A DNA stretch of 32,000 bases from an uncultured Clostridia bacterium (GTDB lineage: Bacteria > Bacillota > Clostridia > TANB77 > CAG-508), in the NCBI GenBank assembly GCA_944387425.1, contig CALXEV010000008.1:9969-41968 (forward strand). Direction: 5' to 3'. Positions 2,021 to 28,040 of the stretch are shown one piece after another. The position numbers and the translations under genes are program-made. The first letter of the stretch is position 1, and each line of letters opens with the position of its first letter. The notes below the pieces were generated by a model. It was not told where the DNA came from. It saw nothing but the letters and a program-made list of their open reading frames with translations, and did not search any database.

Positions 2021-2049
2021 TGACATTTGGTACCGGTTCTTTTTTGCCA
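2021..2049 (-). repeat. Single A-type unit of the intergenic repeat family (R1)
   Basis: The minus strand reads TGGCAAAAAAGAACCGGTACCAAATGTCA. It lies between the stop of the 161-aa gene (2081) and the recD2 RBS. CCGG-containing GC core in an otherwise AT-rich spacer. Confidence 0.8.
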
Positions 2050-2080
2050 TTTTGACTTTTGAAACCTATTATTTTTTTTG

Positions 2081-2566
2081 CTATTCAGCTGTTTCTGTTG
2101 TTTCTTCTCCTTCAACAACTTCTTCTCCAACTGGTTGTGTTGATTTTTCTATTTTGTAATCATATGAATTTTTTAATTCTTTAGAAACAATTGCTGTTAC
2201 CTCTGTTTCTACACCTGCATCTAAAGTTGGTACCATTATAGCAAAACGTTGTACCTCTTCTGAATTTTCATTCAAAAATACTAAATCTAACATTTGTTCT
2301 TCTATTTGATTTTCTGATTCATTTTTTATAGTGATAATTAGATTACATGTTTCTGAATCTTCTGTGTCTTCCATTTTTAAATTTAAAAATTTAATTCCGT
2401 TATATTCTTTACTTGCACCATTTTTTTCAATTTGTAAGTTTTCCTGTTCATTTAATTGTTCTTCATTATTTTTATTTCTTGTAACAAAAAATGCTACTAT
2501 TAGTGATACAATAACAATAAGCACTATTAATAATGCAATTCTTTTTATTAATACTTCTTTTTTCAT
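2081..2566 (-). CDS. Hypothetical membrane-anchored protein (N-terminal TM helix, acidic extracytoplasmic domain), 161 aa
   Basis: ORF track 2081..2626. I prefer the internal ATG at 2566 (MKKEVLIKRIALLIVLIVIVSLIVAFF), which is preceded by AAGGAAG. One hydrophobic helix, then a Glu/Asn-rich domain. No motif I recognise. Confidence 0.6.
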   Translation of the reverse strand: MKKEVLIKRIALLIVLIVIVSLIVAFFVTRNKNNEEQLNEQENLQIEKNGASKEYNGIKFLNLKMEDTEDSETCNLIITIKNESENQIEEQMLDLVFLNENSEEVQRFAIMVPTLDAGVETEVTAIVSKELKNSYDYKIEKSTQPVGEEVVEGEETTETAE

Positions 2567-2605
2567 CTTTTGACTTCCTTTCTTTAATAAAAATTTATAA
2601 ATATA

Positions 2606-2634
2606 TTCTACAATAAAGAAAGACAAATATCAAG
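2606..2634 (-). promoter_or_regulatory. Putative sigma-A promoter for the 161-aa gene
   Basis: Minus strand: TTGATA (2634-2629), 17-nt spacer, TAGAAT (2611-2606). Confidence 0.4.
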
Positions 2635-2649
2635 AATTTATTTTGATTA

Positions 2650-3006
2650 TTATTCTTTTTCTTCAATATTATCTATTATATCTTTGCAATCTTTCCAACT
2701 TGAGACTTTAACACATTCATAATCTATTGACATTCTATTTATGATTTCTTTTGTATTATCAGTAGAGCCTAAATCTGTAATAATTATATCTTTCACATTA
2801 TCTTCTTTTCCATACAAAATTCTAAATAAACTCGAGCGCAAAAAACCTTCAATTTTTTCCTCCTGGTTTTTCACTGCTATAATAATATAAATCCCATCTT
2901 CTTTTAAATTTATATATGTACATAGATTTATAATTTGTCTAACAAATTCAAATAAACCATAAAGAGCAAATGTCCATAGTAGTGAATTTATAATAAAATT
3001 CTCCAT
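2650..3006 (-). CDS. Small membrane protein resembling the N-terminal part of a family-2 glycosyltransferase (118 aa)
   Basis: N-terminal hydrophobic helix (NSLLWTFALYGLFEFV). Next come IYIIIAVKNQEEKIEGFLRS and IIITDLGSTDNTKEII, which resemble the first beta-alpha-beta units and the DxD-proximal 'DDGSTD' region of GT2 enzymes. It is far too short for a full GT2. AAGGAGG RBS upstream of the ATG at 3006. Confidence 0.55.
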   Translation of the reverse strand: MENFIINSLLWTFALYGLFEFVRQIINLCTYINLKEDGIYIIIAVKNQEEKIEGFLRSSLFRILYGKEDNVKDIIITDLGSTDNTKEIINRMSIDYECVKVSSWKDCKDIIDNIEEKE

Positions 3007-3058
3007 ACTCTATTCCTCCTTATGGCTATTATATGACTTATATTAAATTATGTTTCTT

Positions 3059-4171
3059 TTATTTTAATTCAATTTTTTTCTCCCATGGTAAGTCTGGTTT
3101 TCCAAAATGTCCATAATTAGTTGTTTTTGTAAATATTGGTTCACGTAATCCTAAGTAGTTTATAATTCCTTTTGGAGATAAATCAAAATTTCTATTTATA
3201 ATTTCTAGAATTTTATCTTCTGGAATTGCATTTGTTCCAAATGTATCTATAAATACTGACATTGGCTTTTCAACACCTATTGCATAAGCTACTTGTAACT
3301 CACATTTTTTTGCATATCCATTTGCAACAATATTTTTGGCTATAAAACGTAACATATATGCTGCACTACGGTCAACTTTTGTTGCATCTTTTCCAGAAAA
3401 TGCTCCTCCACCATGACGTGCATATCCTCCATATGTATCAACAATTATTTTTCTTCCAGTTAGTCCCGTATCTCCTAAAGGTCCACCTATTACAAATCTT
3501 CCTGTAGGATTTATATAGTATTTTGTTTTTTCATCCAAAAATTTTGATGGAATTACATCATTTATTACTTTTTCTTTTATATCTTTTTTCAATGTTTCCA
3601 TATCAATATCTGCTATATGTTGTGTTGATATTAAAATTGTATCTATTCTGTTGACTTTACCATCAATATATTCAACTGTTACTTGTGTTTTTCCGTCAGG
3701 TCTTAAATATGGAATTATTCCTTGTTTACGTACTTCTGTTAATCTTTTTGATAATTTATGTGCCATTGAAATTGCAAATGGCATATATTCTTCTGTTTCA
3801 TCTGAAGCATAGCCAAACATTATTCCTTGGTCTCCAGCACCACCAACATCAACACCTTGTGCAATATCTGAACTTTGTTTAGTAATATTTATATCAATTT
3901 GACATGTTGCGTAGTCTATATCTAATTCTGCATTATCATATCCGATTTCTTTTATTCTGTTTCTCACAATTTGTTCTATGTCTAGCTCTGCATTTGATGT
4001 TATTTGACCTGCTATTGTTATTTTGTTTGCTGATGCAAATGTTTCTACTGCTACTCTTGAATATTTGTCTTGTTTTAGTGCTTCATCTAATATTGTGTCT
4101 GAAATGTAATCACACAATTTATCTGGATGCCCTTCTGTTACACTTTCTGATGTAAAATAATATTTTTTCAT
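3059..4171 (-). CDS. metK: S-adenosylmethionine synthetase
   Basis: [49 protein letters not shown] and GGGAFSGKD are hallmark MetK motifs. An S-box riboswitch lies upstream. Confidence 0.97.
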
Positions 4172-4207
4172 TTTTTATACCTCTTTCTACTATTTTTATT
4201 ACTACAT

Positions 4208-4359
4208 TATAACAAAACTCTGTTACTTTATGTAACAGAGTTTGATAATCTATTTTTAATTATCATTCAAAGCTACATGCTTTGCAGGTTTTAGCACCTT
4301 GATTACTCAGGTTGCTGTGGTTTCTTCGAGCCTGTTCTCTACACCACTCTTGATAATAG
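4208..4359 (-). promoter_or_regulatory. SAM-I (S-box) riboswitch with terminator expression platform, leader of metK
   Basis: The minus strand reads CTATTATCAAGAGTGGTGTAGAGAACAGGCTCGAAGAAACCACAGCAACC...AAGGTGCTAAAACCTGCAAAG...TGAATGATAA. This matches the S-box core (TTATCAAGAG..GG.GGA..GGC.C..TGAA.CC..GCAACC...GGTGCTAA..C..GCA). A 12-bp terminator stem follows (AAACTCTGTTAC/GTAACAGAGTTT, 4215-4243), then a T-rich tail. Confidence 0.9.
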
Positions 4360-4376
4360 CTATTTCATTGGTATAT

Positions 4377-4405
4377 ATTTTACATCATTTTGTGAGTTTT
4401 GTCAA
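4377..4405 (-). promoter_or_regulatory. Putative sigma-A promoter of the S-box/metK transcript
   Basis: Minus strand: TTGACA (4405-4400), 17-nt spacer, TAAAAT (4382-4377). The predicted start is about 10 nt before the riboswitch P1 stem. Confidence 0.6.
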
Positions 4406-4562
4406 TCGTTTTATAGAATGTATTTAAGCAAGTATTAAAAAAAATAACAAAATAATTTTTTCATTCACTTATCTTTAAAAAACATTATACAGTCTACGTA
4501 TTTTTTATTTAAAATTCATTTTTTTTTTATTTTTTTAATATACATATATAAAGGAGGTTTTT

Positions 4563-4766
4563 ATGGAAAGAAATTCTGATTTTTCACCATATTCACAATT
4601 AGATGGGATAGATAATGGTTTAAATGATATGTATAAAGACCCAATGTTTAATCCAATTATGCAATATGAACAAGCATATTCATATTATAAATATTTATGT
4701 ATGCAAATGGATTACAAAATCAAGTGTAAGGAATATGAAAAAATGTGTAATTCCAAAAACTCATAA
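4563..4766 (+). CDS. Hypothetical small protein (67 aa), rich in Tyr, Met and Cys
   Basis: Strong RBS AAAGGAGG 7 nt before the ATG. It sits in a 390-nt divergent intergenic region. Sequence MERNSDFSPYSQLDGIDNGLNDMYKDPMFNPIMQYEQAYSYYKYLCMQMDYKIKCKEYEKMCNSKNS has no family I recognise. Confidence 0.55.
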   Translation: MERNSDFSPYSQLDGIDNGLNDMYKDPMFNPIMQYEQAYSYYKYLCMQMDYKIKCKEYEKMCNSKNS

Positions 4767-4771
4767 AAAGG

Positions 4772-4800
4772 TTTACAAATCCATAGTTTTCGGTTAAAAT
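4772..4800 (+). promoter_or_regulatory. Possible sigma-A promoter for tsaE
   Basis: TTTACA (4772-4777), 17-nt spacer, TAAAAT (4795-4800). The predicted start would fall inside the tsaE Shine-Dalgarno sequence, which lowers confidence. Confidence 0.3.
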
Positions 4801-4818
4801 ATTGTAGGAGGGAATTTT

Positions 4819-5274
4819 ATGAATACTTACAAATTTACATCTCACAGTTCAACCGAAACTATGGATTTTGCATATAATTTAGCAAGTAAATTAAAAATAG
4901 GAGATATTATTGTTCTTTCTGGTGAACTTGGTGCAGGTAAAACAAAGTTTACAGAAGGATTTTTGAAATATTTTGGATTAGAAAATGAACTTTCAAGCCC
5001 AACTTTTACAATAGTGAATGAATATAAAAACGATAAAATCACAATTTATCATTTTGATGTGTATCGTTTAGAAGATGTTGATGAATTTTATGCAATTGGT
5101 GGTGAAGAATATTTTTCTTCTGGTATTTGCATTATTGAATGGGGAGAAATCGTTGAAAGTGCTTTGCCTAATGACTATATAAAAATTTCTTTTGAAAAAG
5201 ATTATGAAAATGAAAATTATAGAAATATTACAGTAAATACTTTTGGTAGTAAATATGACTATTTAAATAAATGA
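4819..5274 (+). CDS. tsaE: tRNA threonylcarbamoyladenosine (t6A) biosynthesis ATPase TsaE
   Basis: P-loop SGELGAGKTKFTEG, SPTFTIVNEY and HFDVYRL are typical of TsaE/YjeE. AGGAGGG RBS. Confidence 0.92.
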   Translation: MNTYKFTSHSSTETMDFAYNLASKLKIGDIIVLSGELGAGKTKFTEGFLKYFGLENELSSPTFTIVNEYKNDKITIYHFDVYRLEDVDEFYAIGGEEYFSSGICIIEWGEIVESALPNDYIKISFEKDYENENYRNITVNTFGSKYDYLNK

Positions 5275-5361
5275 CAAAAAAGAACCGGCACCAAATGCTA
5301 ATTTGCCACCAAGGAACGTCCCTGTGGCAAAATGGCAAAAGAGAACCAGCACTAAATGTCA
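5272..5361 (+). repeat. Repeat cluster R2: A-type, B-type hairpin, A-type, filling the convergent tsaE/uppP spacer
   Basis: 5272-5300 TGACAAAAAAGAACCGGCACCAAATGCTA; its first three bases are the tsaE TGA stop. 5303-5330 TTGCCACCAAGGAACGTCCCTGTGGCAA, with 8-bp stem TTTGCCAC/GTGGCAAA. 5333-5361 TGGCAAAAGAGAACCAGCACTAAATGTCA. Confidence 0.85.
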
Positions 5362-5366
5362 TTTTG

Positions 5367-6164
5367 CTATCTTATTAATGTCATTGCAATTACTATAATT
5401 CCTAATACAACTCTATAAATAGCAAATATTTTGAAGCTTCCTTTTTTTAAATAATTTAATAAGAATTTTATTACAAATAATCCTACTAAAAAGCTGAATA
5501 ATACCCCCATGAAAAAGGCAAGTGTAAATTCAAAATCAGTTATACTTACTAAAACAGCAGCCAAAATTATTGGTGTTGATAATAAGAATGAATATTTTGC
5601 AGCACTTTCTCTATCAACTTTTAATGCTCTTGCTACAGTCATTGTTATTCCAGATCTTGATGTTCCAGGAAAAGCCGCTGCGATTGCTTGAGAAATTCCT
5701 ATTAAAAATGATTGTTTAAATGTCATGTCTTCATATTTAGTTTCAGAAGGTGATTTTTTGTCTACTACGTATAGCAATATTCCTAATACGATTAATGCTA
5801 CTGCGATTAATATCATTTCTATTCCAAATTTATCACATATAAATTCAGAAAATTTATCTAATATTAAGCTTACTATTCCTGTTGGAATTGTTACAGCTAC
5901 TATGTACCAAAATATTTTTCCTTCTGTTGATTTTTTCTTTTTTACTACTTGCTCATATCCTCCTTTGATTAGTCCTAGCCAATCTTTAAAGAAAAATATT
6001 GTTATTGCAAGTAATGTTCCTAAGTGTAATGCAACATCAAAACTTTCTGGCATTTCCCAGCCAAATATCCATGGTATTAAGTTTAAATGTGCAGAACTTG
6101 ATATTGGTAGTAATTCTGTTACTCCTTGTACTACTCCTAAAATTATTGCTTGATATATTTCCAC
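5367..6164 (-). CDS. uppP: Undecaprenyl-diphosphate phosphatase (BacA/UppP)
   Basis: N-terminal GVVQGVTELLPISSSAHL and the later PGTSRSGITM motif. Multi-pass membrane protein of typical length (265 aa). Confidence 0.95.
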   Translation of the reverse strand: MEIYQAIILGVVQGVTELLPISSSAHLNLIPWIFGWEMPESFDVALHLGTLLAITIFFFKDWLGLIKGGYEQVVKKKKSTEGKIFWYIVAVTIPTGIVSLILDKFSEFICDKFGIEMILIAVALIVLGILLYVVDKKSPSETKYEDMTFKQSFLIGISQAIAAAFPGTSRSGITMTVARALKVDRESAAKYSFLLSTPIILAAVLVSITDFEFTLAFFMGVLFSFLVGLFVIKFLLNYLKKGSFKIFAIYRVVLGIIVIAMTLIR

Positions 6165-6221
6165 AATAAATTCTCCTTTCTTATGTACATTTTTAATTTT
6201 TTAGGACTATTCTTTAAAAGT

Positions 6222-7097
6222 CTAAGAATAATCCTTTATATTTTTAGATACTTTTAAAACCATATTATAAATAAATTCCGCAGATGTTGTTGGCGCTACT
6301 TTTCCTGGTAGTGATAATGCCCAAATAAATTTTAATTTTCTTTCTTTTACTACATTTCTATCTATCCCACCTGGATTTGATGCTAAATCTATTAATAATA
6401 CATTGTCTTTTACATATTCTAATCTTTTTTCTGTTAGAATTAAATGTGGTACTGTATTTATTATTATATCATATTGTTTTAAGTCTTTTCCTATATTATT
6501 GATATTTGTAACTTTATATCCATATGCTTGAATCCATGCAAAGTCTTCATCTTTTCTTGCAGCACAAGTTACTACAGCAGATAATCCTATTAATTTTCTT
6601 GCAAGCACTTTTCCTATTCTTCCAAATCCTAATACTAATACTCTACTGCCATGTAATATTCTATCTGTATTTTCTATTGCCAATTGAATTGTTCCTTCAG
6701 CAGTTGCTATTGTATTTAATATTGCTAATTCTTCACTTTCCATTATGTCTATAATATTAATTTCATCTAGTTTTGCTATTTCTTGAATTTTAGGAGATAT
6801 CGCTCCTGCTATAATTGTCCTTGTTTTCATATGGTCAAACATTTCTCTTATTGTTAGCTCTTTTTCTCCAAATGGTGTATTTACTGTTTCTCCATTACTT
6901 GAGATAGGAATTGGACCAACTATAATTTCAGCTTCTTGTATTGCATTTTCAATAGTATCACATTCTATAATATTTTGCATGTCTTTTAATTCTTTTGCTT
7001 TTTCTAATCCATAAGTATATACTTCAAGAGCATCTTTTGCAAGCATTTCTGCTAATTTTATTATTCTTAAATCTCCACCTATAATTGCAAATTTCAT
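6222..7097 (-). CDS. dpaA: Dipicolinate synthase subunit A (SpoVFA/DpaA-like, NAD(P)-binding)
   Basis: The sequence parallels B. subtilis SpoVFA as I recall it, in four blocks. They are FAIIGGDLR, AILNTIATAEGTIQLAIENTDRILHGS, LVLGFGRIGKVLARKL (Rossmann GxGxxG) and LIDLASNPGG...LPGKVAPTTSA. Confidence 0.85.
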   Translation of the reverse strand: MKFAIIGGDLRIIKLAEMLAKDALEVYTYGLEKAKELKDMQNIIECDTIENAIQEAEIIVGPIPISSNGETVNTPFGEKELTIREMFDHMKTRTIIAGAISPKIQEIAKLDEINIIDIMESEELAILNTIATAEGTIQLAIENTDRILHGSRVLVLGFGRIGKVLARKLIGLSAVVTCAARKDEDFAWIQAYGYKVTNINNIGKDLKQYDIIINTVPHLILTEKRLEYVKDNVLLIDLASNPGGIDRNVVKERKLKFIWALSLPGKVAPTTSAEFIYNMVLKVSKNIKDYS

Positions 7098-7164
7098 ATT
7101 TGTCTAGTCCTCCTTAATATAAATGTCTTAGTATTATTATATTAAATTTGCAATTTTTTATGAA

Positions 7165-8388
7165 TTATTCTTCTCTTTCTTTTTGATGTTGTTTTTCCTC
7201 TTCTAAGTTTAGTGATGTTTTTCCTTGTTTTTCAATTTTCACATCACTATATCCTATTTTTTTTGTAATCTCTACCATTTGCTCTAAATGTTCTTTTGCA
7301 ATCTTTTCTTTTTTAGTTAATTTTCGTGGCTTTTCTTCTTCTACATCTAAGTTAAATGGTATTGATAATTTTGTAATTATTGTAGCAAACGCAACATCTT
7401 TTTGTATTTTTTCAACAATTCTTTTTGGCTCTTCTTGTATTGCAACATTAGCATATTGAATTGCTTTTTCTTTATCACCTTTTATAAGATATATTTTTGA
7501 AAGTTCTAAATAGGCATCTGCACATAACTCTTCGTCTTCAGTTGCTTGTAAAAAGTATTTTTCTGCTTCTTCTAACTCTTTATAAATAAGTGCTATTTCT
7601 GCTAAACTATATTTTGTGTTATATGCTATAGAGTTTAGTTCAGCCGCCTTTTCATAGCTAACTTTTGCACTTTGAAAGTCATTTAGCATTGTATATACTA
7701 TTCCTAAATTGTAATTTAAATCATAGCTTGTAGGATTGTATTTTAAAGCTTCTGAATATATATTTACAGCTTCTTTATAATCTTCTTTTTCTATCAATAA
7801 ATCTCCTAAAGCAATTGTTGCTTCAATATAGTCTGGTTTCTTGCTTAATAAATTTCCAAGCATTTCTATTGCTTCATCTTTTTTGTCTAAGTCTGTTAAT
7901 AGATTTGCTATCTTATAGCATGATAAATAGTCTTTTTTATTAATATCAATTGCTTGAACATATTCATCTACAGCTTTTCTTTGTCCACCTTCTTTTTCAT
8001 ATATTTCTGCTAATAATTTGTGGCCTAAATAACTTTCTGGTTTATCTGTTACAAGTTTTATTAATATATTTTTTGCTTTTTTGTTGTTTCCAAATACTAA
8101 ATAAATCTTTGCTAAAATAATATAAAAGTTTTCTGCTATATTTCCATTTGTTTTCTCAATGCATATAATTCCAATTGGAAGTAATATTGATAGTGTATAT
8201 GTTATTATTCCTGTGAATATATTTATTTCTTTTCCAAAACAAACTTCTATAAATTTTATACCTATTCCTAATGCTTCTAAAGCTAATATTGGAACATATT
8301 TAGTATCATTTGTTTTTATTAATTTATAAAAAATATATATGAATATTCCAAAAGCAATTGTTATAAATAGTAATTGTTCTATGAACAT
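7165..8388 (-). CDS. Membrane-anchored tetratricopeptide (TPR) repeat protein, 407 aa
   Basis: About four N-terminal hydrophobic helices. Then repeated 34-aa A/Y/L-patterned units (for example YKEAVNIYSEALKYNP and FQSAKVSYEKAAELN). Lys/Glu-rich tail. Confidence 0.75.
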   Translation of the reverse strand: MFIEQLLFITIAFGIFIYIFYKLIKTNDTKYVPILALEALGIGIKFIEVCFGKEINIFTGIITYTLSILLPIGIICIEKTNGNIAENFYIILAKIYLVFGNNKKAKNILIKLVTDKPESYLGHKLLAEIYEKEGGQRKAVDEYVQAIDINKKDYLSCYKIANLLTDLDKKDEAIEMLGNLLSKKPDYIEATIALGDLLIEKEDYKEAVNIYSEALKYNPTSYDLNYNLGIVYTMLNDFQSAKVSYEKAAELNSIAYNTKYSLAEIALIYKELEEAEKYFLQATEDEELCADAYLELSKIYLIKGDKEKAIQYANVAIQEEPKRIVEKIQKDVAFATIITKLSIPFNLDVEEEKPRKLTKKEKIAKEHLEQMVEITKKIGYSDVKIEKQGKTSLNLEEEKQHQKEREE

Positions 8389-8401
8389 ATTTTACCTCCA
8401 A

Positions 8402-9640
8402 TTAGTGTGTGTGTTCATGTGAAATGGCACCATAATCAGCTTCTATTGTTTCTACTACCTTTTTAGGTTCTGCATCTGGTTTTTGCATTTCTCTATTATA
8501 TCTCTCTACCAATTTTACTAATGATTCTCCTGTTTCGTCAACAAGTTCTCCCCAAGTTTTTTGAGTATTTGGTATATAATCTTCTTCTGTAATATTCATA
8601 TCTACTTGTCCACTATCTCTTTGTGCATTTTCTACTTCATTTACTTGATGTGCTAATTCATGAGAATACTCAGTTCCTTCTGTTTCAAATTCATTTCTAA
8701 TTTGATAACTTTCTTCTTGTGTAGCATCTTCTCCTTGCATCCTAACTCCTCTTGCAATTCTTTCGTCACAAGGTAATACTTCAACTGTTTCTATATCAAT
8801 TTCTCCATATGGCCCATATGTTATTGCAATTTCTTGTTTATCATTACTTGTCTCCATTAGTGCATGTGGAACTCTTTTTTCTATACTCTCACCATTTTCA
8901 TCTATACTAATTATTGTTTTCCAAGCTGTTTGTGCTGGCTCAACATTATCATTTATTTTAAATTTGCCATTTACATTTGTTAACATTACAAATCTATTTA
9001 ATTTATTAGAATATGCTATACCATTTTCTTCTGAATTTCCAAATACTTGTGGCATTCTCTCAGCAACGTTTTTATCTTTTATTTTTCTATAATTTGAGAT
9101 TTCTAAATCTTCGCCTTGTTCTTCAAGATCTTTTTTTATTTTTTCTTCCGTTGTTTCTCCTTTATCTTCTTGTTGCTCATCAGTTTCTTGTTCTTCCTCA
9201 TCTACTATTTTTTCTTTTCCTTCAAGCATTTCTTTTACTTCTTCAGGAGTCATTTTTTCTGAAATACCTTTTAAACGTCCTGGCTCTTTTTCATTTTCTG
9301 CTATAACTTCTTCTAAATTTATATTAGATAAATATGCTTCTAATTCTGGTATTATTGAAGAAACTTTTCCATCTTTATCAACTGCTAAGATTTCATTTGA
9401 AGAACTTCCACTATAAACATGGAATGTAAAATTTCCTTCTGCATCTTTTTCTGTAGTAATAAAAATATTATTAAAATCTATATCTCCCATTTTAAATTTT
9501 TCATAATATTTTATATTTTCTACTTCTCCATTATTTTCTTGTAATCTTGCTTGTAATTCTTGTTCAAAAGAATCTAATATTGCTAGTATTTGTTTTTCTT
9601 CTGGTCCAAATGTATATTGTGCAGATTTGTTTTCTTCCAT
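8402..9640 (-). CDS. Hypothetical highly acidic protein, 412 aa, no recognisable domain
   Basis: Long ORF with the codon usage of its neighbours, spaced 14 nt after rimO and 13 nt before the TPR gene. Central Glu/Asp/Lys low-complexity linker (EEEQETDEQQEDKGETTEEK). Ends in HEHTH. Confidence 0.7.
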   Translation of the reverse strand: MEENKSAQYTFGPEEKQILAILDSFEQELQARLQENNGEVENIKYYEKFKMGDIDFNNIFITTEKDAEGNFTFHVYSGSSSNEILAVDKDGKVSSIIPELEAYLSNINLEEVIAENEKEPGRLKGISEKMTPEEVKEMLEGKEKIVDEEEQETDEQQEDKGETTEEKIKKDLEEQGEDLEISNYRKIKDKNVAERMPQVFGNSEENGIAYSNKLNRFVMLTNVNGKFKINDNVEPAQTAWKTIISIDENGESIEKRVPHALMETSNDKQEIAITYGPYGEIDIETVEVLPCDERIARGVRMQGEDATQEESYQIRNEFETEGTEYSHELAHQVNEVENAQRDSGQVDMNITEEDYIPNTQKTWGELVDETGESLVKLVERYNREMQKPDAEPKKVVETIEADYGAISHEHTH

Positions 9641-9654
9641 AATAAAACCTCCTC

Positions 9655-11010: not shown

Positions 11011-11034
11011 TTTTACCTCTTCTTTCAGCTATTA

Positions 11035-12222: not shown

Positions 12223-12245
12223 TTCATTTGTCCTTCCTTTATTGT

Positions 12246-17162: not shown

Positions 17163-17534
17163 TTATTTATTCTCCTTATCTATTTTTTGTTTGTTTAATT
17201 CATTTATAATGTTATCAATTCTTGCTCCGTATTCTAGTGAATCATCTAATTCAAATACTAATTCAGGTGTATTTCTTAAATTGATTCTTTTTGCTAGTTC
17301 TGATCTTAGATATCCTGATGATTTTTTTAGTCCTGCTAAAGTTTCATTTACATTTTTTGAGTTTAATATGCTTACAGATACTTTTGCATATTTTAGGTCT
17401 GGTGTTACTTTTACTCTTGTTACACTTACCATACCAGTTACACTTGGTTCTTTTAACTCAAAACTTATCAATTGACTTAGCACTTTTTTATATTCTTCGT
17501 CAATTCTTCCTTGACGATTATTATTTTTTGGCAT
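17163..17534 (-). CDS. rbfA: Ribosome-binding factor A
   Basis: RIDEEYKKVLSQLI...VSVTRVKVTPDLKYAKVSVSIL...LRNTPELVFELD fits RbfA. The start is set at ATG 17534 (GAAGGGAG RBS). The 18 extra codons in the track ORF (to 17588) lie inside a repeat unit. Confidence 0.9.
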   Translation of the reverse strand: MPKNNNRQGRIDEEYKKVLSQLISFELKEPSVTGMVSVTRVKVTPDLKYAKVSVSILNSKNVNETLAGLKKSSGYLRSELAKRINLRNTPELVFELDDSLEYGARIDNIINELNKQKIDKENK

Positions 17535-17558: not shown

Positions 17559-17628
17559 TGTCGATTGGGACCGGGTCTTTTTTGGCACTTTGCAAATTGT
17601 GTCAATTGGGACCGGGTCTTTTTTGGTA
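17559..17628 (-). repeat. Repeat cluster R3: two tandem A-type units (41-nt period) between the infB stop and the rbfA RBS
   Basis: Minus-strand reads: 17628-17600 TACCAAAAAAGACCCGGTCCCAATTGACA and 17587-17559 TGCCAAAAAAGACCCGGTCCCAATCGACA. The first unit begins 1 nt after the infB TAA. Confidence 0.9.
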
Positions 17629-17629
17629 A

Positions 17630-20822: not shown

Positions 20823-20831
20823 TATTTCCTC

Positions 20832-21953: not shown

Positions 21954-21968
21954 TTTTTCTGATTCCCC

Positions 21969-22430
21969 CTACCAATTATACACTGTTTTTATTTGTGATA
22001 TATTTTTTCTTTCTATCTGAATTTCATCTTCTTCACTTGTTTTTATTGATACTACTTCTTGGTCAAATTTTAATAATTCTCCTATATAGTCTTTGTTGCC
22101 TTTTTGGTCTTTCTTGAATAATTTAATTTCAATTTGATTTCCGATATTTTCTTGTAAATGTCTATCTTTTCTTAATACTCTCTCTATCCCTGGTGATGAT
22201 ACTTCTAGATAGTATTGGTCTTTTATGATGTTTGCCTCATCTAGCATCTCATCTATTGCATTACTTACTTTTTCACAATCATTTAAGTCAATTCCTTTTT
22301 CATTATCTATATAGACACTTAAATAATAATTTGGTCCTTCTTTGACATATTCTACATCATACAGGTTATAGCCTAATTTTTCTATTGTTTCTTTTAGAAG
22401 TTCTTCTACTTTTTCTTCTATTTTTGCCAT
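21969..22430 (-). CDS. rimP: Ribosome maturation factor RimP
   Basis: LEVSSPGIERVL motif, 153 aa, directly upstream of nusA. AAGGAGG RBS. Confidence 0.92.
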   Translation of the reverse strand: MAKIEEKVEELLKETIEKLGYNLYDVEYVKEGPNYYLSVYIDNEKGIDLNDCEKVSNAIDEMLDEANIIKDQYYLEVSSPGIERVLRKDRHLQENIGNQIEIKLFKKDQKGNKDYIGELLKFDQEVVSIKTSEEDEIQIERKNISQIKTVYNW

Positions 22431-22458
22431 AAATCCTCCTTTTTTTTGACTAAGATTA

Positions 22459-22483
22459 AAGAGTAGGATTTGCTCCTACTCTT
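22459..22483 (-). promoter_or_regulatory. Strong stem-loop in the rimP-nusA-infB leader (possible attenuator)
   Basis: Minus strand: AAGAGTAGGA-GCAAA-TCCTACTCTT, a 10-bp perfect stem. It is followed by TAATCTTAGTC and lies between the predicted start (about 22500) and the rimP RBS. Confidence 0.45.
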
Positions 22484-22506
22484 CTGTACGCTTTTTGTTC
22501 TTATAT

Positions 22507-22560
22507 ATTATACCCAATTTTTGGCATAAATGCAAGCTTTTTTCGAAATTTTTTCGAGAT
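22507..22560 (-). promoter_or_regulatory. Sigma-A promoter of the rimP-nusA-infB array with an A-tract UP-like element
   Basis: Minus strand: TTGCAT (22535-22530), 17-nt spacer, TATAAT (22512-22507). Immediately upstream is TCGAAAAAATTTCGAAAAAAGC, two phased A6 tracts (a duplicated TTTTTTCGA on the plus strand). Confidence 0.65.
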
Positions 22561-22563
22561 TTG

Positions 22564-22662
22564 TGGCAAAAAAGAACTAACATCAAATCTCAAAATTGAA
22601 AATGACAAAAAAAGACCCGGTCCCAATTGACATGTGTCAAAAAAGACCCGGTCCCAATTGTC
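22564..22662 (+). repeat. Repeat cluster R4: three A-type units (one degenerate) between the OFOR beta stop and the rimP promoter
   Basis: 22564-22592 TGGCAAAAAAGAACTAACATCAAATCTCA (degenerate core). 22603-22632 TGACAAAAAAAGACCCGGTCCCAATTGACA. 22635-22662 TGTCAAAAAAGACCCGGTCCCAATTGTC, which abuts the TAG stop at 22663-22665. Confidence 0.88.
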
Positions 22663-23613
22663 CTATCTATTTGTAATTTCTTCTAAATCAAGAAGTTCTT
22701 GCCATCTTGCATCTACTTCTTTTTGGAATTCCTCAATCATCCATTCATTTCCTGGTTTAAACATATGTTTAAAACGTTTTTGTGGACGTAAAAATTCTTC
22801 AATTGGAAGTTTTTTAGCTGGCTTATATGTTATTTTATATTTTCCATCTACAACTTCATATAGAGGCCAATAACATGTATCAACAGCTAATTTATTTATT
22901 ACCATTAAATCTTCTGTAGGATATCCCCATCCTCTTGGGCAAGGAGCCAATACATTTAAGAATGCAGGTCCTTTTGTATATATTGCTTTTTCAGCTTTTT
23001 CATATAAGTCTTTAAAATTATTTACTGCAAGTGTTTGTCCAACATATGGAATATGATGTCCTACCATTATTTTTGCTAAATCTTTTCTAGCTTGCATTTT
23101 TCCAGGTATTACTTTACCTGCTGGTGATGTTGTTGTATCTGCAAATTTTGGTGTAGCAGATGAACGTTGAATTCCTGTGTTCATATATGCACCATTGTCA
23201 TAACATACATATACCATGTCATGACCTCTTTCCATTGCTCCAGATAAACTTTGTAAACCTATATCATAAGTTCCTCCATCTCCACCAAATGCAATAAATT
23301 TTGTTTCTTGGTTTTCTGGTAATTTTCCTTGTTTTTTCATTGATTTGTATGCAGCTTCTGCTCCTGCACAAGTAGCTCCTGCACATTCAAATGCTGTATG
23401 AATAAATGAGTCTGTCCAAGCTGTGTATGGATATATAAATGTAGATACTTCCATACATCCTGTTGCACCTGCAACTACTGCATGATCTTCTGGTTTTAAA
23501 GCTCTCATTATCATTCTTGCAACTACTGGTGCACCACATCCAGCACACATTCTATGTCCTTCTGTAAATCTTGATGGTTTCTCTACCATAACTTTCTTTA
23601 AATCATATGCCAT
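22663..23613 (-). CDS. porB: 2-oxoacid:ferredoxin oxidoreductase beta subunit (TPP-binding), pyruvate/2-ketoisovalerate type
   Basis: N-terminal CAGCGAP cysteine motif, and the TPP-binding block GGDGGTYDIGLQSLSGAMERGHDMVYVCYDNGAYMNTG. Substrate specificity (por, vor or kor) cannot be read from the sequence alone. Confidence 0.9.
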   Translation of the reverse strand: MAYDLKKVMVEKPSRFTEGHRMCAGCGAPVVARMIMRALKPEDHAVVAGATGCMEVSTFIYPYTAWTDSFIHTAFECAGATCAGAEAAYKSMKKQGKLPENQETKFIAFGGDGGTYDIGLQSLSGAMERGHDMVYVCYDNGAYMNTGIQRSSATPKFADTTTSPAGKVIPGKMQARKDLAKIMVGHHIPYVGQTLAVNNFKDLYEKAEKAIYTKGPAFLNVLAPCPRGWGYPTEDLMVINKLAVDTCYWPLYEVVDGKYKITYKPAKKLPIEEFLRPQKRFKHMFKPGNEWMIEEFQKEVDARWQELLDLEEITNR

Positions 23614-23614
23614 A

Positions 23615-24805
23615 TTATTTGTCCTCCTTTCTTAGTCCTAAATATCTATATGGATTTTCTACTTTTCCGTTTTTTAGAATTTCTTCTAAGTCAATATATA
23701 CTTGTTTTATTTGCATTTCTGTAGTATCTCTACCACCAATACCATAAACGTAGTTTACCATAGGTACTTGTTTTTGATTTACATACATTGCTGATGTTAC
23801 ATCTTCAAATAATGCTCCTCCTGCACCATTTAAAGAATCTGCTTTGTCTAATACTGCAACAGCTTTTAAATGAGCAAGTGCTTCTGCAACTTCTTCTACT
23901 GGGAATGGTCTAAACATTCTTATTTTTAATAATCCTGCTTTTACACCTTTTTCTCTTAATTCATCAATTACAGCTTTTGTTGTTCCTGCTGTTGAATTCA
24001 TACAAACTATTGCGATTTCTGCATCATCTAGCTTATATTTTTCAAAGAATTCATATTTTCTTCCTGTCCATTTTTCAAAGTCTTCTGAAACTTCTTTTAT
24101 TACTTTTTTTGCATTTTTCATTGCTTCTGCTTGCTGTGCTTTATGTTCAAATAAATATGCTTGTACATCTAAAGGTCCTACTGCAATAGGTTCTTTTTCG
24201 TTTAATAAATAATGTTCAGGTTTATATGTTCCAACGAATTTTTTAACTTCTTCATCACTTTCTAATTGTATATTTTCAATAGAGTGTGATGTTATAAATC
24301 CATCTTGACATACCATTACTGGTAATTGAACATCTTTGTGTTCTGCTATTCTGTGTGCCATTAACATATTGTCATATGCTTCTTGGTTGTTTTCAGAAAA
24401 TAGCATTATCCATCCTGCATCTCTTACTCCCATTGCGTCTGAATGGTCATTATGTATATTTAATGGTCCTGATACAGCTCTGTTTACTAATGCCATAACA
24501 ATTGGTAAACGAAGGCTTGATGCAATATATATCATTTCCCACATTAATGATAATCCATTTGCTGATGTTGCTGTCATTGCTCTTGCTCCTGCTGCTTCTG
24601 CACCGATTGTTGCTGACATAGCACTATGTTCACTTTCTACAGCAACAAATTCTGTATCAACTTCTCCATTTGCTACAAATGTTGAAAAATATTGTGGTAT
24701 TTCTGTTGATGGTGTTATAGGGAATGCTGCAACTACATCTGGATTTATTTGCTTCATTGCTATTGCTGTTGCTTCATTTCCACTTAATCTTTCTCTTATA
24801 CTCAT
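23615..24805 (-). CDS. porA: 2-oxoacid:ferredoxin oxidoreductase alpha subunit
   Basis: MSIRERLSGNEATAIAMKQINPDVVAAFPITPSTEIP is a typical alpha N-terminus. The start is set at ATG 24805, overlapping the delta stop as TAATG and preceded by GAGGAGGG. The 25 extra track codons (to 24880) overlap delta. Confidence 0.9.
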   Translation of the reverse strand: MSIRERLSGNEATAIAMKQINPDVVAAFPITPSTEIPQYFSTFVANGEVDTEFVAVESEHSAMSATIGAEAAGARAMTATSANGLSLMWEMIYIASSLRLPIVMALVNRAVSGPLNIHNDHSDAMGVRDAGWIMLFSENNQEAYDNMLMAHRIAEHKDVQLPVMVCQDGFITSHSIENIQLESDEEVKKFVGTYKPEHYLLNEKEPIAVGPLDVQAYLFEHKAQQAEAMKNAKKVIKEVSEDFEKWTGRKYEFFEKYKLDDAEIAIVCMNSTAGTTKAVIDELREKGVKAGLLKIRMFRPFPVEEVAEALAHLKAVAVLDKADSLNGAGGALFEDVTSAMYVNQKQVPMVNYVYGIGGRDTTEMQIKQVYIDLEEILKNGKVENPYRYLGLRKEDK

Positions 24806-25113
24806 TATTCTACACCCTCCTCTTTCATATCTATTGCTTTGAAAGGACATACTTTTGCACATATTCCGCATCCTTTGCAATAATCATAGTTATAATCTTT
24901 TCTTTTTAAATCTTCTCCTACAGGAATTGCATTATCTGGACATACTGGAAAACATAGTCCACATTGTTTACATTTTTCTTCTAACCAAACAGGTTTCATA
25001 CTTCTCCAGTCACCTGTTTTGAATTCTCTTGCATTTCCTGCCTCATATATAGTTCCTCCTATTGTCATTTTTTCAATAGGTGTTTTTGAGTTAATTTCTG
25101 TCATTTTATACAC
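24805..25113 (-). CDS. porD: 2-oxoacid:ferredoxin oxidoreductase delta subunit (2x[4Fe-4S] ferredoxin)
   Basis: Two CxxCxxCxxxCP motifs: CKQCGLCFPVCP and CKGCGICAKVCP. 102 aa. Confidence 0.9.
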   Translation of the reverse strand: MYKMTEINSKTPIEKMTIGGTIYEAGNAREFKTGDWRSMKPVWLEEKCKQCGLCFPVCPDNAIPVGEDLKRKDYNYDYCKGCGICAKVCPFKAIDMKEEGVE

Positions 25114-25119
25114 CTCTCT

Positions 25120-25689
25120 TTATATTTTTTTAACTTCTTTTAAAGCAATTTCCAATGCTTTCATATTTCCATCTATTACTTCTGGCTTTTTAGCAAATTT
25201 GTGTTTAAATGATTTTTGCATATCTGCTAATAATTCTTCATCTGTCATTATTCCAGATACTTTTACTATTGCTGCAAGCATTGGTGTGTTTGGAAAATAT
25301 TTTCCTAATGCTTCTTGTGATACTTTTCTTGCATCTATTGTATATATTGCTCCTTTATATCCATGTAATGCTTTTTTTAGATATTCAGGAGATTTTGTTG
25401 TATTTATTACTATTGCTCCTGTTTCTTTTAATCCATCAGTTACTGGTACTGATTCTAGTAATGTGTCATCTACTACAACTACATAATCTGGTTCATAGAT
25501 ATTACTATGAATTGTTATTGGTGTGTCACTTATTCTGTTATATGCTGTAATAGGTGCTCCCATTCTTTCTGGTCCATATTCTGGAAAACCCTGTATATAT
25601 TTTCCTGTGTTAAATGCTGCGTCTGCTAATAGAAGTGAAGCTGTTTTTGCTCCTTGTCCTCCTCTTCCATGCCATCTAATTTCAATCAT
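25120..25689 (-). CDS. porC: 2-oxoacid:ferredoxin oxidoreductase gamma subunit
   Basis: MIEIRWHGRGGQGAKTASLLLADAA is the signature N-terminus of gamma subunits. 189 aa. AAGGAGG RBS. Confidence 0.9.
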   Translation of the reverse strand: MIEIRWHGRGGQGAKTASLLLADAAFNTGKYIQGFPEYGPERMGAPITAYNRISDTPITIHSNIYEPDYVVVVDDTLLESVPVTDGLKETGAIVINTTKSPEYLKKALHGYKGAIYTIDARKVSQEALGKYFPNTPMLAAIVKVSGIMTDEELLADMQKSFKHKFAKKPEVIDGNMKALEIALKEVKKI

Positions 25690-25767
25690 TGAATTTAGCC
25701 TCCTTTTTTGCTATTTTAGTTTTTTTTCTAAAATAGTGAGTTTTTATTTTTGTTTTAACTCACACAT

Positions 25768-25796
25768 AGTATATTCTTATTTTGTCTTAATGTCAA
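25768..25796 (-). promoter_or_regulatory. Sigma-A promoter of the oxidoreductase operon
   Basis: Minus strand: TTGACA (25796-25791), 17-nt spacer, TATACT (25773-25768). The roughly 70-nt leader contains two AT-rich hairpins (25710-25735 and 25735-25762). Confidence 0.55.
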
Positions 25797-25822
25797 GCTA
25801 TTTTGAACAGTCATCCTAAAAT

Positions 25823-25911
25823 TTGCCACAGGGACGGTCCTTTTTGGCAATTTGAAAAAAGGAACCGGCACCAATAACCAAATTTGCCAAAAAGGACCGT
25901 CCCCATGGCAA
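25823..25911. repeat. Repeat cluster R5: 89-nt composite of inverted B-type units flanking one A-type unit
   Basis: 25823-25850 TTGCCACAGGGACGGTCCTTTTTGGCAA is the reverse complement (26/28) of 25884-25911 TTGCCAAAAAGGACCGTCCCCATGGCAA. The 33-nt spacer holds the A-type TGAAAAAAGGAACCGGCACCAATAACCA (25853-25880). Confidence 0.88.
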
Positions 25912-25920
25912 AAAATTGCA

Positions 25921-25956
25921 CAAAAAGAACCCCCGCATTTGCAAGGGTTCTTTTTG
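25921..25956 (-). terminator. Rho-independent (bidirectional-looking) terminator after ftsH
   Basis: AAGAACCC (25925-25932) pairs with GGGTTCTT (25945-25952) across a 12-nt loop. An A-run lies on one side and a T-run on the other. It starts 11 nt after the ftsH stop. Its left arm, TGCACAAAAAGAACCCC, resembles the 5' half of an A-type repeat. Confidence 0.65.
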
Positions 25957-25966
25957 ATAGGACTAC

Positions 25967-27862
25967 TTATGCGTCTATATTTTCCGCACGAGCATTTTGG
26001 TATGCACTAAACATTTTGTCCAGTTCTTCGCCTTGAATTGTTTCTTTTTCCAAAAGAAGTTGAGCAACTTTTTCTACAAAAAAGCTATGTTCTTTGAGAA
26101 TTTGAGTTGCTTTTTTCTCTGCTTCGCAAAGCAGTTCTTTGGTCCGATTTACCAATTCATGAGAATAACTATCAGATTCAAGATAATCCTTGTATTCCCC
26201 ATTCATAGAAATAGGACCAAAAACATCATCCATGCCATAAATGGCAATCATTTTAGTTATAATGTCAGTAGCCCGCTTTAAATCGTCACTAGCTCCTGTA
26301 GAAATATCTTGAATGAAAAGTTTTTCTGCCGCTCTTCCTCCAAGCAAGGATACAACCTTTTCTTGAAGCATAGTCTTGCTAATGAAACTTCTATCTTCAG
26401 TAGCTTCATACCAAGTATATCCACCTACTACACCAGCACCAATGATGGAAATTTCTTTTACTTTATCTTGAGTTTTCATGAACATACTTACAACTGCATG
26501 TCCAGTTTCATGATAAGCCACAAGACGGCGCTCTTTTTCACTCAAAATCCGCTCGTTTTTGGACAGTCCAACAACAATCTTTTTCATTGCAGAATCAATA
26601 TCGTCATTAGAAATCTTTTCGTGTTTGTTTCTAACAGCCATGATTGACGCTTCATTCAAAAGATTTTCAAGTTGAGCACCAGAAAATCCGGAAGTATTGT
26701 AGGCAATTTTTTTGAAGTCCACACTATCTTCAAATTTTTTGTTTCTAGCATGAATTTTCAAAATTTCTTCTCTTCCTTTTACGTCTGGTAGAGATACAAC
26801 AATTTGCCTATCAAATCTTCCTGGTCTTAAAAGTGCTTTGTCTAAGCTTTCTATACGGTTTGTTGCAGCAACTACAACAATACCATCTGCCTCAGATGTT
26901 TCAAATCCGTCCATTTCGATAAGAAGCTGTTCTAGTGTTTGGTTATGCTCAATAGTATTTTCACTGCTATCCCGCTTAGAACCAATAGCATCTATTTCAT
27001 CAATAAAGATGATACATGGTGCTTCTTTTCTTGCTTGTTCAAACAGTGTTCTAATTCTTTTTGCCCCAACTCCCACATACTTTTCTACAAATTCTGCACC
27101 AGAAGATGGCAAAAATGCAACTCCTGCCTCTCCAGCTAATGCTTTAGCAAGTAGAGTTTTGCCTGTTCCTGGAGTACCTGAGAGTAAAATGCCTCTTGGG
27201 ATTTTGGCTCCCATTTGTTTATACTTTTGGGGATTTTTTAAAAAGTCTACAACTTCTTCAAGTTCGAATTTTTCTTCTTTCAAGCCTGCAATGTCTTTAA
27301 ATGTTATATTTCTAGGTGTTATATTTCTTTTTTTAGTTTCCTTTTGATTAATTGTGCCATTATTTAGACCTTCTTTTTGAACAGTATCTCTAAATTTTTG
27401 TATTTCTTCTTCAGTCTTTTTTTCAGTTTGCTTAATTATTTTATAAAATCTAAAAATCATTACAGCAAGAAATGTGAGAAAAATTATATACATAATATCA
27501 GCTATAGAAACAGATTCTTTGTTGACTATTTTTATTTCTTGTCCTGCTTCTATCTCCTCTTGAATAAAGTTTTTAAAAATTTCTTTATCCAAAAGTACTA
27601 CTTCGTATTCATTTCCTTCTTTGTCTATCAAATCAGCTTCATTTGAACTGTCATCATTGATTTGAATTTCTGAAATTTGCTTATCTTGGATTATAGCAAT
27701 TGCATCACTATATGATATTTGTTGAACCTGAACTTCTTCTTTCGATGGAAACATACTTTTATAAAAATTGAATACAGTTGGCATAACAACAATAATCAAT
27801 CCTATAATACAAGCCATCCGAACAAGAAAGTTTTTCTTGAAGTCAATTTTGTGATTAAACAT
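25967..27862 (-). CDS. ftsH: ATP-dependent zinc metalloprotease FtsH
   Basis: Two N-terminal TM helices, AAA+ Walker A GTPGTGKTLLAKA, Walker B IIFIDEIDA, SRH ATNRIESLDKALLRPGRFD, and zinc site HETGHA. Confidence 0.96.
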   Translation of the reverse strand: MFNHKIDFKKNFLVRMACIIGLIIVVMPTVFNFYKSMFPSKEEVQVQQISYSDAIAIIQDKQISEIQINDDSSNEADLIDKEGNEYEVVLLDKEIFKNFIQEEIEAGQEIKIVNKESVSIADIMYIIFLTFLAVMIFRFYKIIKQTEKKTEEEIQKFRDTVQKEGLNNGTINQKETKKRNITPRNITFKDIAGLKEEKFELEEVVDFLKNPQKYKQMGAKIPRGILLSGTPGTGKTLLAKALAGEAGVAFLPSSGAEFVEKYVGVGAKRIRTLFEQARKEAPCIIFIDEIDAIGSKRDSSENTIEHNQTLEQLLIEMDGFETSEADGIVVVAATNRIESLDKALLRPGRFDRQIVVSLPDVKGREEILKIHARNKKFEDSVDFKKIAYNTSGFSGAQLENLLNEASIMAVRNKHEKISNDDIDSAMKKIVVGLSKNERILSEKERRLVAYHETGHAVVSMFMKTQDKVKEISIIGAGVVGGYTWYEATEDRSFISKTMLQEKVVSLLGGRAAEKLFIQDISTGASDDLKRATDIITKMIAIYGMDDVFGPISMNGEYKDYLESDSYSHELVNRTKELLCEAEKKATQILKEHSFFVEKVAQLLLEKETIQGEELDKMFSAYQNARAENIDA

Positions 27863-27924
27863 ACATTTACCTCCATTATGTTTTTGTGCATGTCCTATTT
27901 AGTTTTCAAAGTGCATACTTACAT

Positions 27925-27953
27925 ATTGTACCACAATTTGGTAATGTATTCAA
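27925..27953 (-). promoter_or_regulatory. Sigma-A promoter of ftsH (extended -10)
   Basis: Minus strand: TTGAAT (27953-27948), 17-nt spacer ending in TGG, TACAAT (27930-27925). That gives a TGnTACAAT extended -10. Confidence 0.6.
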
Positions 27954-27980
27954 TGTTTTATGTAAATTTATTGTAAATAG

Positions 27981-28040
27981 TGCAAAAAAGAGCCGGTACC
28001 AATTGCCAAAATGGCAAAAGAGAACCGGCACTAATTGCAA
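27981..28040 (+). repeat. Repeat cluster R6: two A-type units between the small Cys-rich ORF and the ftsH promoter
   Basis: 27981-28008 TGCAAAAAAGAGCCGGTACCAATTGCCA and 28012-28040 TGGCAAAAGAGAACCGGCACTAATTGCAA. The junction TTGCCAAAATGGCAA is a 6-bp palindrome. The cluster ends 4 nt from the stop at 28045. Confidence 0.88.

Follow-up and report, generated by a model that had tools for sequence, protein, structure and literature searches.

The 32,000-nt stretch of DNA analysed here (the window) comes from an uncultured Clostridia bacterium, has a GC content of 28% and carries almost all of its genes on the minus strand. These include metK with its S-adenosylmethionine (SAM) riboswitch, tsaE, uppP, spoVFA, rimO, pth, metG, truB, nrnA, rbfA, infB, ylxR, nusA, rimP, an ftsH-like gene and efp, together with a four-gene 2-oxoacid:ferredoxin oxidoreductase operon. 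Clusters of a short, GC-cored repeat occupy six of the spacers, and its 14 units are the subject of this study. They are very probably selfish, lineage-specific, short, interspersed and non-autonomous repeats resembling repetitive extragenic palindromic (REP) elements, of the terminal inverted repeat (TIR) type, and maintained by an enzyme similar to the REP-associated tyrosine transposases (RAYTs).

The 14 units listed in the initial annotation are exact in sequence, position and strand. A loose core pattern, AAAAGRNCCNGNNCCNAA, with at most two mismatches matches the window 15 times against 0.99 matches expected, a number reached in none of 100 shuffles, and the family is thus enriched over shuffled composition. 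A hidden Markov model (HMM) trained solely on units of other genomes was run on the window and on 20 shuffled windows; it recovered ten units of the window with scores of 12.7-29.3 bits, compared with a maximum of 5.5 bits in the shuffled sequences, and it found no further copies in the window and none within a gene. Under this model of the A-type, two degenerate units (5333 and 22564) and all B-type units do not rise above the noise, yet their sequences show them to be clear relatives. B-type units (AAAAGGACCGTCCCC) are members of the same family, separated from the A-type by approximately one indel. Copies within a cluster resemble each other, with CCCGGTCCC at 17.6 and 22.6 kb and ACCGG[CT]ACC elsewhere, and the view of one dedicated repeat family with locally homogenised clusters stands.

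A single A-type unit with a GAACCGGTACC core is found at 2021-2049 (-; 24.7 bits), 19 nt upstream of the TTG start of the gene at 1-2001 (-), whose GGAGG ribosome-binding site follows closely. The convergent tsaE/uppP spacer holds an A-B-A cluster, composed of an A-type unit (GAACCGGCACC) at 5272-5300 (+; 21.4 bits), a degenerate B-type unit with a GGAACGTCCC core and inverted flanks TTGCCAC/GTGGCAA at 5303-5330 (+), and a degenerate A-type unit (AAGAGAACCAGCAC) at 5333-5361 (+), the last being an AAGAG variant that also occurs beside the transposase gene of this species. The cluster has folding energies of -26.9 (+ strand) and -39.5 (- strand) kcal/mol. In the infB-rbfA spacer, two A-type units with GACCCGGTCCC form a direct pair: the first, at 17600-17628 (-; 26.9 bits), begins 1 nt past the infB stop codon, and the second, at 17559-17587 (-; 22.7 bits), reads A-run first on the coding strand and lies just upstream of the rbfA ribosome-binding site.

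In the spacer separating the oxidoreductase operon from the rimP promoter, a decayed A-type unit at 22564-22592 (+; 2.8 bits, noise level) has retained the 5' half TGGCAAAAAAGAAC alone. It is accompanied by two A-type units, again with GACCCGGTCCC, at 22603-22632 (+; 26.5 bits), which reads T-run first on the coding (-) strand, and at 22635-22662 (+; 29.3 bits), which abuts the stop codon of the oxidoreductase beta gene (22663-22665). At 25.8 kb, an inverted B/B pair with a left arm at 25823-25850 (-; GGACCGTCCC) and a right arm at 25884-25911 (+; GGACCGTCCCC) encloses an A-type unit (GAACCGGCACC) at 25853-25880 (+; 12.7 bits), which sits in the loop of the B/B hairpin; the folding energies are -51 and -58.8 kcal/mol (z about -8.5). 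The last cluster is a direct pair of A-type units at 27981-28008 (+; GAGCCGGTACC, 22.3 bits) and 28012-28040 (+; AAGAGAACCGGCAC, 14.9 bits), with the start of the ftsH-like gene on one side and, on the other, the stop codon of a small gene at 28045-28218 (-).

None of these units lies inside a gene, as first reported, with three small positional corrections. The TGA at 5272-5274 is the stop codon of tsaE and also the first 3 nt of the unit at 5272-5300; the unit at 17559-17587 falls within a mechanically called open reading frame (ORF), yet upstream of the real rbfA start at 17534. The intergenic location does not hold as a general rule, because related genomes carry units in frame within genes.

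A repeat family of related gut Clostridia

An exact 20-mer, AAAAAGAMCCGGYMCCAAWT, was scanned in 185,579 species genomes (one genome per species) and found in at least 97 stretches. Among the matches listed, ~75 derive from ~20 low-GC metagenome-assembled genomes (MAGs) labelled 'uncultured Clostridia' from human, rabbit and goat gut, often with several matches per contig, and the remaining ones are single matches in unrelated high-GC genomes, as expected by chance. A scan of viral contigs gave three matches. An IMG/VR contig classed as viral (L003, 13-66) holds an inverted unit pair upstream of the same gene (MRNIKLTI...) as a Clostridia MAG locus (L011); the contig may represent a prophage, or else a piece of a chromosome of this clade that was misclassified. 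A metagenome-assembly locus (L101) is 100% identical to window positions 7163-27534, and the exact RbfA sequence of the window is indexed in 540 blocks of the assembly collection; the species is therefore common in (human) gut metagenomes.

The related loci that we collected were seeded on the repeat itself and their gene calls are crude. They comprise ~560 kb with 260 cores, of which 34 (13%) fall in crude ORF calls, most of these ORFs being small and dubious; 84% of the DNA is coding. Unit density is ~0.3-1.2 per kb, which by extrapolation from the loci corresponds to hundreds of copies per 1.5-Mb genome. At least one unit is present in 33% of the same-strand spacers, 28% of the convergent and 11% of the divergent ones, in a sample biased by the seeding. 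Both orientations are abundant in same-strand spacers, where 99 units read A-run first and 71 T-run first on the coding strand. The two classes are placed differently: 40 of the 99 A-run-first units are located 20-40 nt ahead of the next start, and the T-run-first units have a median distance of 26 nt from the upstream stop and of 119 nt to the next start. Adjacent units (115 pairs) are mostly direct (89 tandem pairs with a period of 31-33), with the A/T runs facing each other in 24 pairs and oriented the opposite way in two, and arrays of three to four units occur. In a locus of another species (L111), nearly all units are fixed hetero-dimers with a period of 32, the first reading ..GGTCCCAA and the second ..GGT(C/A)CATAA, and these recur in seven successive spacers within 12.8 kb. 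This arrangement suggests that the dimer is the module that is copied.

Units inside genes were found in three contexts. An AddA-like helicase gene (L056, 1850-2180, -) contains one unit plus three tandem units with a period of 33 nt, positioned between helicase motifs and translated as ...GDKKEPAPIDSIDKKEPAPIDPIDKKEPAPIDPID..., and the inter-domain linker of a RimO protein (L032, 2740-2790, +) holds two units, PKKEPVPNRNPKKEPVPNGK. Three opposite-strand units lengthen the C-terminus of a DUF2207-like protein (L053, 5020-5175). In-frame units encode KKEP[VA]P[NI], or NLVPVLF when read from the other strand. This is the behaviour of insertional DNA and not of a regulatory site, and REPs inside RecBCD and Uvr genes were also noted by Di Nocera et al. 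(PMC3733652). The RimO of the window, 66% identical to the unit-bearing one, has no units and instead an unrelated linker of the same length; these equal-length linkers cannot be aligned and gave no insertion boundaries or target duplication. A comparison with the orthologous spacer of a further locus (L079) was uninformative, as the synteny breaks off at the unit.

Aligned contexts of 129 exact matches define a conserved 20-nt core, AAAAAGA[AC]CCGG[TC][AC]CCAA[AT]T, which together with flanks of 5-7 nt makes up a unit of ~30 bp. The flanks (consensus TG(N)NCAA ... TTG(N)NCA) vary from copy to copy and are mutually inverted repeats. The two flanks of a unit pair with each other better than within-genome shuffles do (z = 8.2 over seven positions and 5.2 over the two central variable positions), and an orthologous unit compared between two genomes shows a compensatory change from ttgccca/tgggcaa to ttgctcg/tgagcaa. 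Counts of G.U versus A.C revealed no strand preference. Single units fold no better than shuffled sequences (z = -0.75 and +0.4), and adjacent pairs have strong folds (z = -2.7 to -8.7). The quasi-palindromic nature of the core, centred on CCGG, lets any two neighbouring units form a long hairpin, whether they are direct or inverted. The strand carrying the T run is always more stable than the one carrying the A run (-30.8 versus -21.0 and -30.7 versus -16.2 kcal/mol). The initial statement that the units have no internal hairpin is therefore accurate for a single unit, but it misses the copy-specific inverted flanks and the folding of adjacent pairs.

An RNA hairpin with a conserved 20-nt loop was considered and rejected on the missing G.U/A.C strand preference, the unfolded single units, the frequency of both orientations and the genic units. 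Sigma-54 sites, Spo0A boxes, -35 boxes, CRISPR and polar motifs of the parS/Chi type were discarded for unfitting consensus, spacing or strand polarity. We found no earlier account of this particular family in Rfam or in the searchable literature; full-text searches with core 11-mers returned unrelated primer or oligonucleotide matches only. At gathering scores, the SAM riboswitch is the sole Rfam match of the window, and two unit-rich loci searched at an E-value threshold gave generic miRNA-hairpin matches below gathering scores. The unit thus matches no Rfam family.

A Y1 transposase gene bracketed by inverted units

Among the 589 ORFs of the related loci, a simple HUH...Y motif filter identified a Y1 transposase gene (L082, 6548-7321); a phmmer search with an approximate IS200 TnpA query gave no match. 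The encoded enzyme matches Pfam Y1_Tnp with an E-value of 6.7e-11 (7e-9 to 7e-11 across the enzymes) and the NCBIfam model 'REP-associated tyrosine transposase' with an E-value of 1.1e-16 (61 bits). It has 819 homologs of 255-262 amino acids (~258), one of which is named RayT by its source. An HUH motif (H60, H62) and a Y---NP motif (Y119, N123, P124) are invariant, and a helical C-terminal domain of ~110 amino acids is conserved. Neither sequence nor profile searches with the enzyme found a match among PDB sequences. The predicted AlphaFold2 model (pLDDT, a per-residue confidence score, 82.5) most resembles 4ER8_A in Foldseek (E = 4.2e-6, template modelling score 0.71), the REP-associated tyrosine transposase of E. 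coli in complex with a REP hairpin, followed by the TnpA proteins of IS608, ISDra2 and IS200. The C-terminal domain has no significant match in PDB or Pfam; isolated weak hits to the helix-turn-helix (HTH) families HTH_7, HTH_19, HTH_23 and HTH_28 were each seen in 1-2 of 20 members.

TIRtrons, in which TIRYT tyrosine transposases are paired with families of TIR repeats, were described by Di Nocera et al. (2013, PMC3733652). TIRYT sequences and classical RAYTs taken from that paper were scored with an HMM of the enzyme family found here, giving 69-122 bits over the whole catalytic domain for the TIRYTs (one outlier at 38) and 10-38 bits for the classical RAYTs. Judged by these profile scores, the enzyme belongs to the TIRYT class, which equals subclass 2.1 of TnpA-REP (Quentin et al. 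2018, PMC6006769) and RAYT group 1 (Bertels et al. 2017, PMC5581495). Group 1 has already been reported in Clostridia.

The transposase gene is bracketed by inverted units in at least five species, including the one that the window belongs to, and at every locus examined for close homologs. T-run-first units lie upstream of the gene, and A-run-first units start at its stop codon or within a few nucleotides of it (L082, L111/L113, L114-116, L117 and L118); two homologs read through into the unit (...KKEPAPN). One transposase gene was seen per locus. The enzyme of the window species (P0062) is encoded on a contig from the same assembly as a strain copy of the window, with a coverage of 11.327 versus 11.331, and the units flanking it are of the AAGAGAACCGGCAC variant that is also present at 5333 and 28012 in the window. 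Strains differ in the number of units upstream of this gene, two versus three. Dispersed copies share the species-specific variant of the copies that flank the gene, namely AACAGAACCGGTCCC in L111 and GACCCGGTCCC in L117. One further homolog (P0095) is flanked by B-type units, and the more distant homologs P0075 and P0040 by more divergent variants such as TTTGGGGACGGGATT. The initial annotation's exclusion of REP and bacterial interspersed mosaic elements (BIMEs) does not survive this arrangement, as a RAYT-like Y1 transposase gene is bracketed by inverted units in the window species too.

Origin and maintenance of the repeats

The bracketing of a Y1 transposase gene by inverted units is the reason why we read the system as a REPtron or TIRtron. 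The repeats would, with high probability, be the counterpart of E. coli REP elements in this uncultured, low-GC lineage of gut Clostridia, and a family not described before. Of the four roles initially proposed, miniature mobile-element debris came nearest. The likeness to TIRtrons lies in a long enzyme (~258 amino acids) with a C-terminal extension, a gene flanked by inverted repeats and not by classical hairpins, and a dispersed repeat family occurring in dimers and clusters. In relation to the published TIR motif GGGGWSAS, the B-type and distant variants agree in seven of eight positions (GGGGACGG or GGGGACAT) and the A-type units in at most six (TGGGACCG or TGGTGCCG). The density of the repeats is far higher here than in the published systems, for which ~12 copies of flanking 16-mers or 'no REP-like sequences' are given, direct tandem arrays dominate, and the C-terminal domain cannot be aligned with those of published TIRYTs, a class whose C-terminal extension is of the HTH type (Bac_DnaA_C, HTH_23 or HTH_28).

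The REP/BIME and RAYT systems of E. coli and Pseudomonas, including REPINs, share with the present family the unit length of ~30 bp, a high copy number and a mostly extragenic location that is rare between divergent genes. Further common traits are a transposase gene flanked by inverted repeats, the HUH and Y---NP motifs, 4ER8 as the best structural match, stable hairpins formed by pairs as in REPINs, and occasional intragenic copies, including one in a RecB-family helicase, as noted for REPs (PMC3733652). The differences are the missing GTAG/CGTC tag, the single unit that is not a stable hairpin and whose conservation would lie in the 'loop', with a variable stem, the reverse of REPs, and the combination of a 28% GC Firmicute host with an enzyme of a different subclass.

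Another type of small repeat that resembles the genic copies is the Rickettsia palindromic element (RPE). RPEs are selfish palindromic repeats of 100-150 bp that insert in frame into coding genes and are translated, and they are not known to have a dedicated transposase. The in-frame, translated copies are alike in both systems, but the units described here are 30 bp long and have a Y1 transposase associated with them.

Existence, distribution and anatomy of the family are observations, as is the link between the repeats and the enzyme gene; a terminator role and the mobilization of the units by the enzyme are inferred, the latter by analogy with the single-strand hairpin mobilization of E. 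coli TnpA-REP and IS200/IS605 (PMC3479197, PMC8266576). In such a scheme, two adjacent units would constitute a stable hairpin module, and the enzyme would bind the folded single strand exposed at replication forks, cut it and rejoin it, so that units are copied or removed. Arrays might grow via slippage or recombination, and copies would be homogenised in each genome in step with its enzyme. The sole hints of such movement are the two-versus-three difference in unit number between strains and one strain locus (L110) from which the 25.8-kb cluster is absent. Selection would set the surviving sites, mostly 3' of genes and in same-strand spacers. T-run-first copies would hug stop codons, where pairs probably act as terminators or 3' stabilisers, and A-run-first copies would be tolerated in 5' untranslated regions (UTRs), with occasional in-frame copies in protein linkers.

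Several results weigh against this REP-like interpretation. Units are very common in spacers, so adjacency to any one gene proves little; the argument is carried by the specific inverted arrangement and by units that, in five species, begin at the stop codon. The window contains three sub-families of units, but a single enzyme was found for its species, and the 61 bits obtained with the NCBIfam model (REP_Tyr_transpos) are below its equivalog cut-off of 80. A GTAG or CGTC tag is absent from the position-by-position consensus of 190 units, and the single unit that folds no better than shuffles is a second missing mark of classical REPs. Surveys have reported no REP-like repeats around this enzyme class (PMC6006769), or low-copy flanking 16-mers only (PMC5581495). 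Finally, ten strains with 97.8-100% identity show no gain or loss of units at the clusters at 17.6, 22.6 and 25.8 kb, which all ten loci cover; the sole change is one locus (L110) without the 25.8-kb cluster, at a break in synteny.

The units could alternatively be RNA elements selected by the host, with T-run-first pairs as intrinsic terminators, A-run-first units as 5'-UTR stabilisers or processing sites and the transposase as an incidental neighbour, an explanation that we find improbable. Clusters are conserved across strains, and the placement of the units depends on their orientation, the T-run-first copies following stops closely and the A-run-first copies preceding starts. The pair at 22603-22632 and 22635-22662 forms a hairpin on the coding strand (-30.8 kcal/mol, z = -5.3) that is followed by U-rich sequence; no canonical terminator was flagged in the oxidoreductase-rimP spacer, and nothing else in this spacer upstream of the rimP promoter is a candidate for a terminator. 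T-run-first copies that follow stop codons probably function as terminators; the RNA 3'-end role initially considered is plausible for these copies and not for the others, and the units as a whole are not ordinary terminators, as had been stated. A role in RNA does not account for the abundance of both orientations, the in-frame genic copies, the arrays of three to four units or the genome-specific core variant shared with the transposase flanks. There is also no G.U/A.C strand preference and no Rfam match, and canonical terminators coexist with units, for example at 25921-25956. The orientation-dependent placement fits selection limiting where copies persist: with its strong hairpin and U-rich tail, a T-run-first pair would do damage in a 5' UTR, and behind a stop codon it would do no harm or be of use. 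A function in RNA is better regarded as a secondary use than as a rival, because it accounts for the persistence and not for the origin of the copies.

It is very improbable that the units are recognised as duplex DNA, through a CCGG-centred dyad, by a dimeric DNA-binding protein or a nucleoid protein, which might be the transposase itself with its C-terminal domain. The core is conserved between variable flanks and holds the small dyads ACCGGT and GACC-C-GGTC, and the C-terminal domain is helical and gives scattered weak HTH hits. These dyads are, however, not kept across the sub-families, which have only CCGG or CCG in common, and the C-terminal domain has no significant match to a DNA-binding family or structure. 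The copy-specific inverted flanks and their compensatory changes indicate base pairing, and tandem arrays and in-gene copies are unexpected of operator sites. High copy number, intergenic bias and occasional inverted pairs also recall the DNA uptake sequences (DUS) and uptake signal sequences (USS) of Neisseria and Haemophilus, or miniature inverted-repeat transposable elements (MITEs) derived from classical insertion sequences (IS) with terminal inverted repeats and target-site duplications. The probability of this origin appears close to negligible: no target-site duplication is visible around the units, a 30-bp unit is shorter than known MITEs, and the only IS nearby, an IS30-like element in one strain (L107), hit a different palindrome and made its own 13-bp duplication. 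Terminator-like pairs, with core ends facing and the T run after them, are rare (two of 115 adjacent pairs), and the proposal of a DNA-uptake-type signal found no support, no search for evidence of competence having been made.

A more far-reaching version of the REP-like interpretation is conceivable, though we regard it as doubtful. The largest RAYT class (group 1, subclass 2.1, TIRYT), so far an 'orphan' reported to be without REP partners, might drive a very dense repeat family, with enzyme and repeat variants (A-type versus B-type) co-diversifying. In these streamlined 1.5-Mb genomes the repeats might have become routine gene punctuation, T-run-first pairs serving as terminators behind stop codons and A-run-first pairs as 5'-UTR elements, and the enzyme might be a domesticated maintenance factor and not a parasite.

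Repeats partnered with Y1 transposases are well studied in Proteobacteria. The system described here adds a clear example from the low-GC Firmicutes, found in a species that human gut metagenomes contain very commonly, and ties a high-copy family to the TIRYT/group 1 class, for which surveys reported few or no repeats. The enzyme-repeat pairs (GACCCGGTCCC, GAACCGGCACC, AACAGAACCGGTCCC and the B-type GGACCGTCCCC) constitute natural specificity swaps for the study of recognition. The repeats are also relevant to the annotation of MAGs of this clade, since ORF calls are lengthened or broken up by them and a breakpoint of rearrangement coincides with one of their clusters. They probably fragment assemblies as well, because many enzyme homologs are found on contigs of ~1 kb.

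Rearrangements and neighbouring elements

In the strain locus without the 25.8-kb cluster (L110), synteny with the window stops at ~1727 (= window 25821), exactly at the edge of the B/A/B cluster; SecA and not the ftsH-like gene is encoded upstream, and no units are present. This cluster is therefore either the site of a rearrangement breakpoint or polymorphic for presence and absence. The IS30-like insertion (L107, 3250-4990, = window 22548-22560) encodes a 434-amino acid HTH_38 protein and lies in the oxidoreductase-rimP spacer, where it has duplicated the 13-bp target ATCTCGAAAAAAT within the palindrome TCGAAAAAATTTCGA, beside the units and not inside them.

The canonical terminator at 25921-25956, after the ftsH-like gene, is bidirectional (AAAAAGAACCC..GGGTTCTTTTT). 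The sequence of its 5' arm, AAAAAGAACC, is the same as that of the A-type core in its 5' half; the units may derive from terminator halves, or the identity may be a coincidence.

The SAM riboswitch upstream of metK (3059-4171, -) lies at 4257-4359 (-; Rfam RF00162, 84.3 bits). Between rimO and the gene for a tetratricopeptide repeat (TPR) protein, positions 8402-9640 (-) encode a very acidic protein of 412 amino acids that is conserved among strains and has no Pfam match. The rimP-nusA-infB operon is preceded by a good promoter (TTGCAT, 17 nt, TATAAT; 22431-22545, reading on the - strand), after which the leader forms a hairpin, AGAGTAGGAGCAAATCCTACTCT, with a T-rich tail (~22460-22483). This leader hairpin may be an attenuator of the NusA-autoregulated type.

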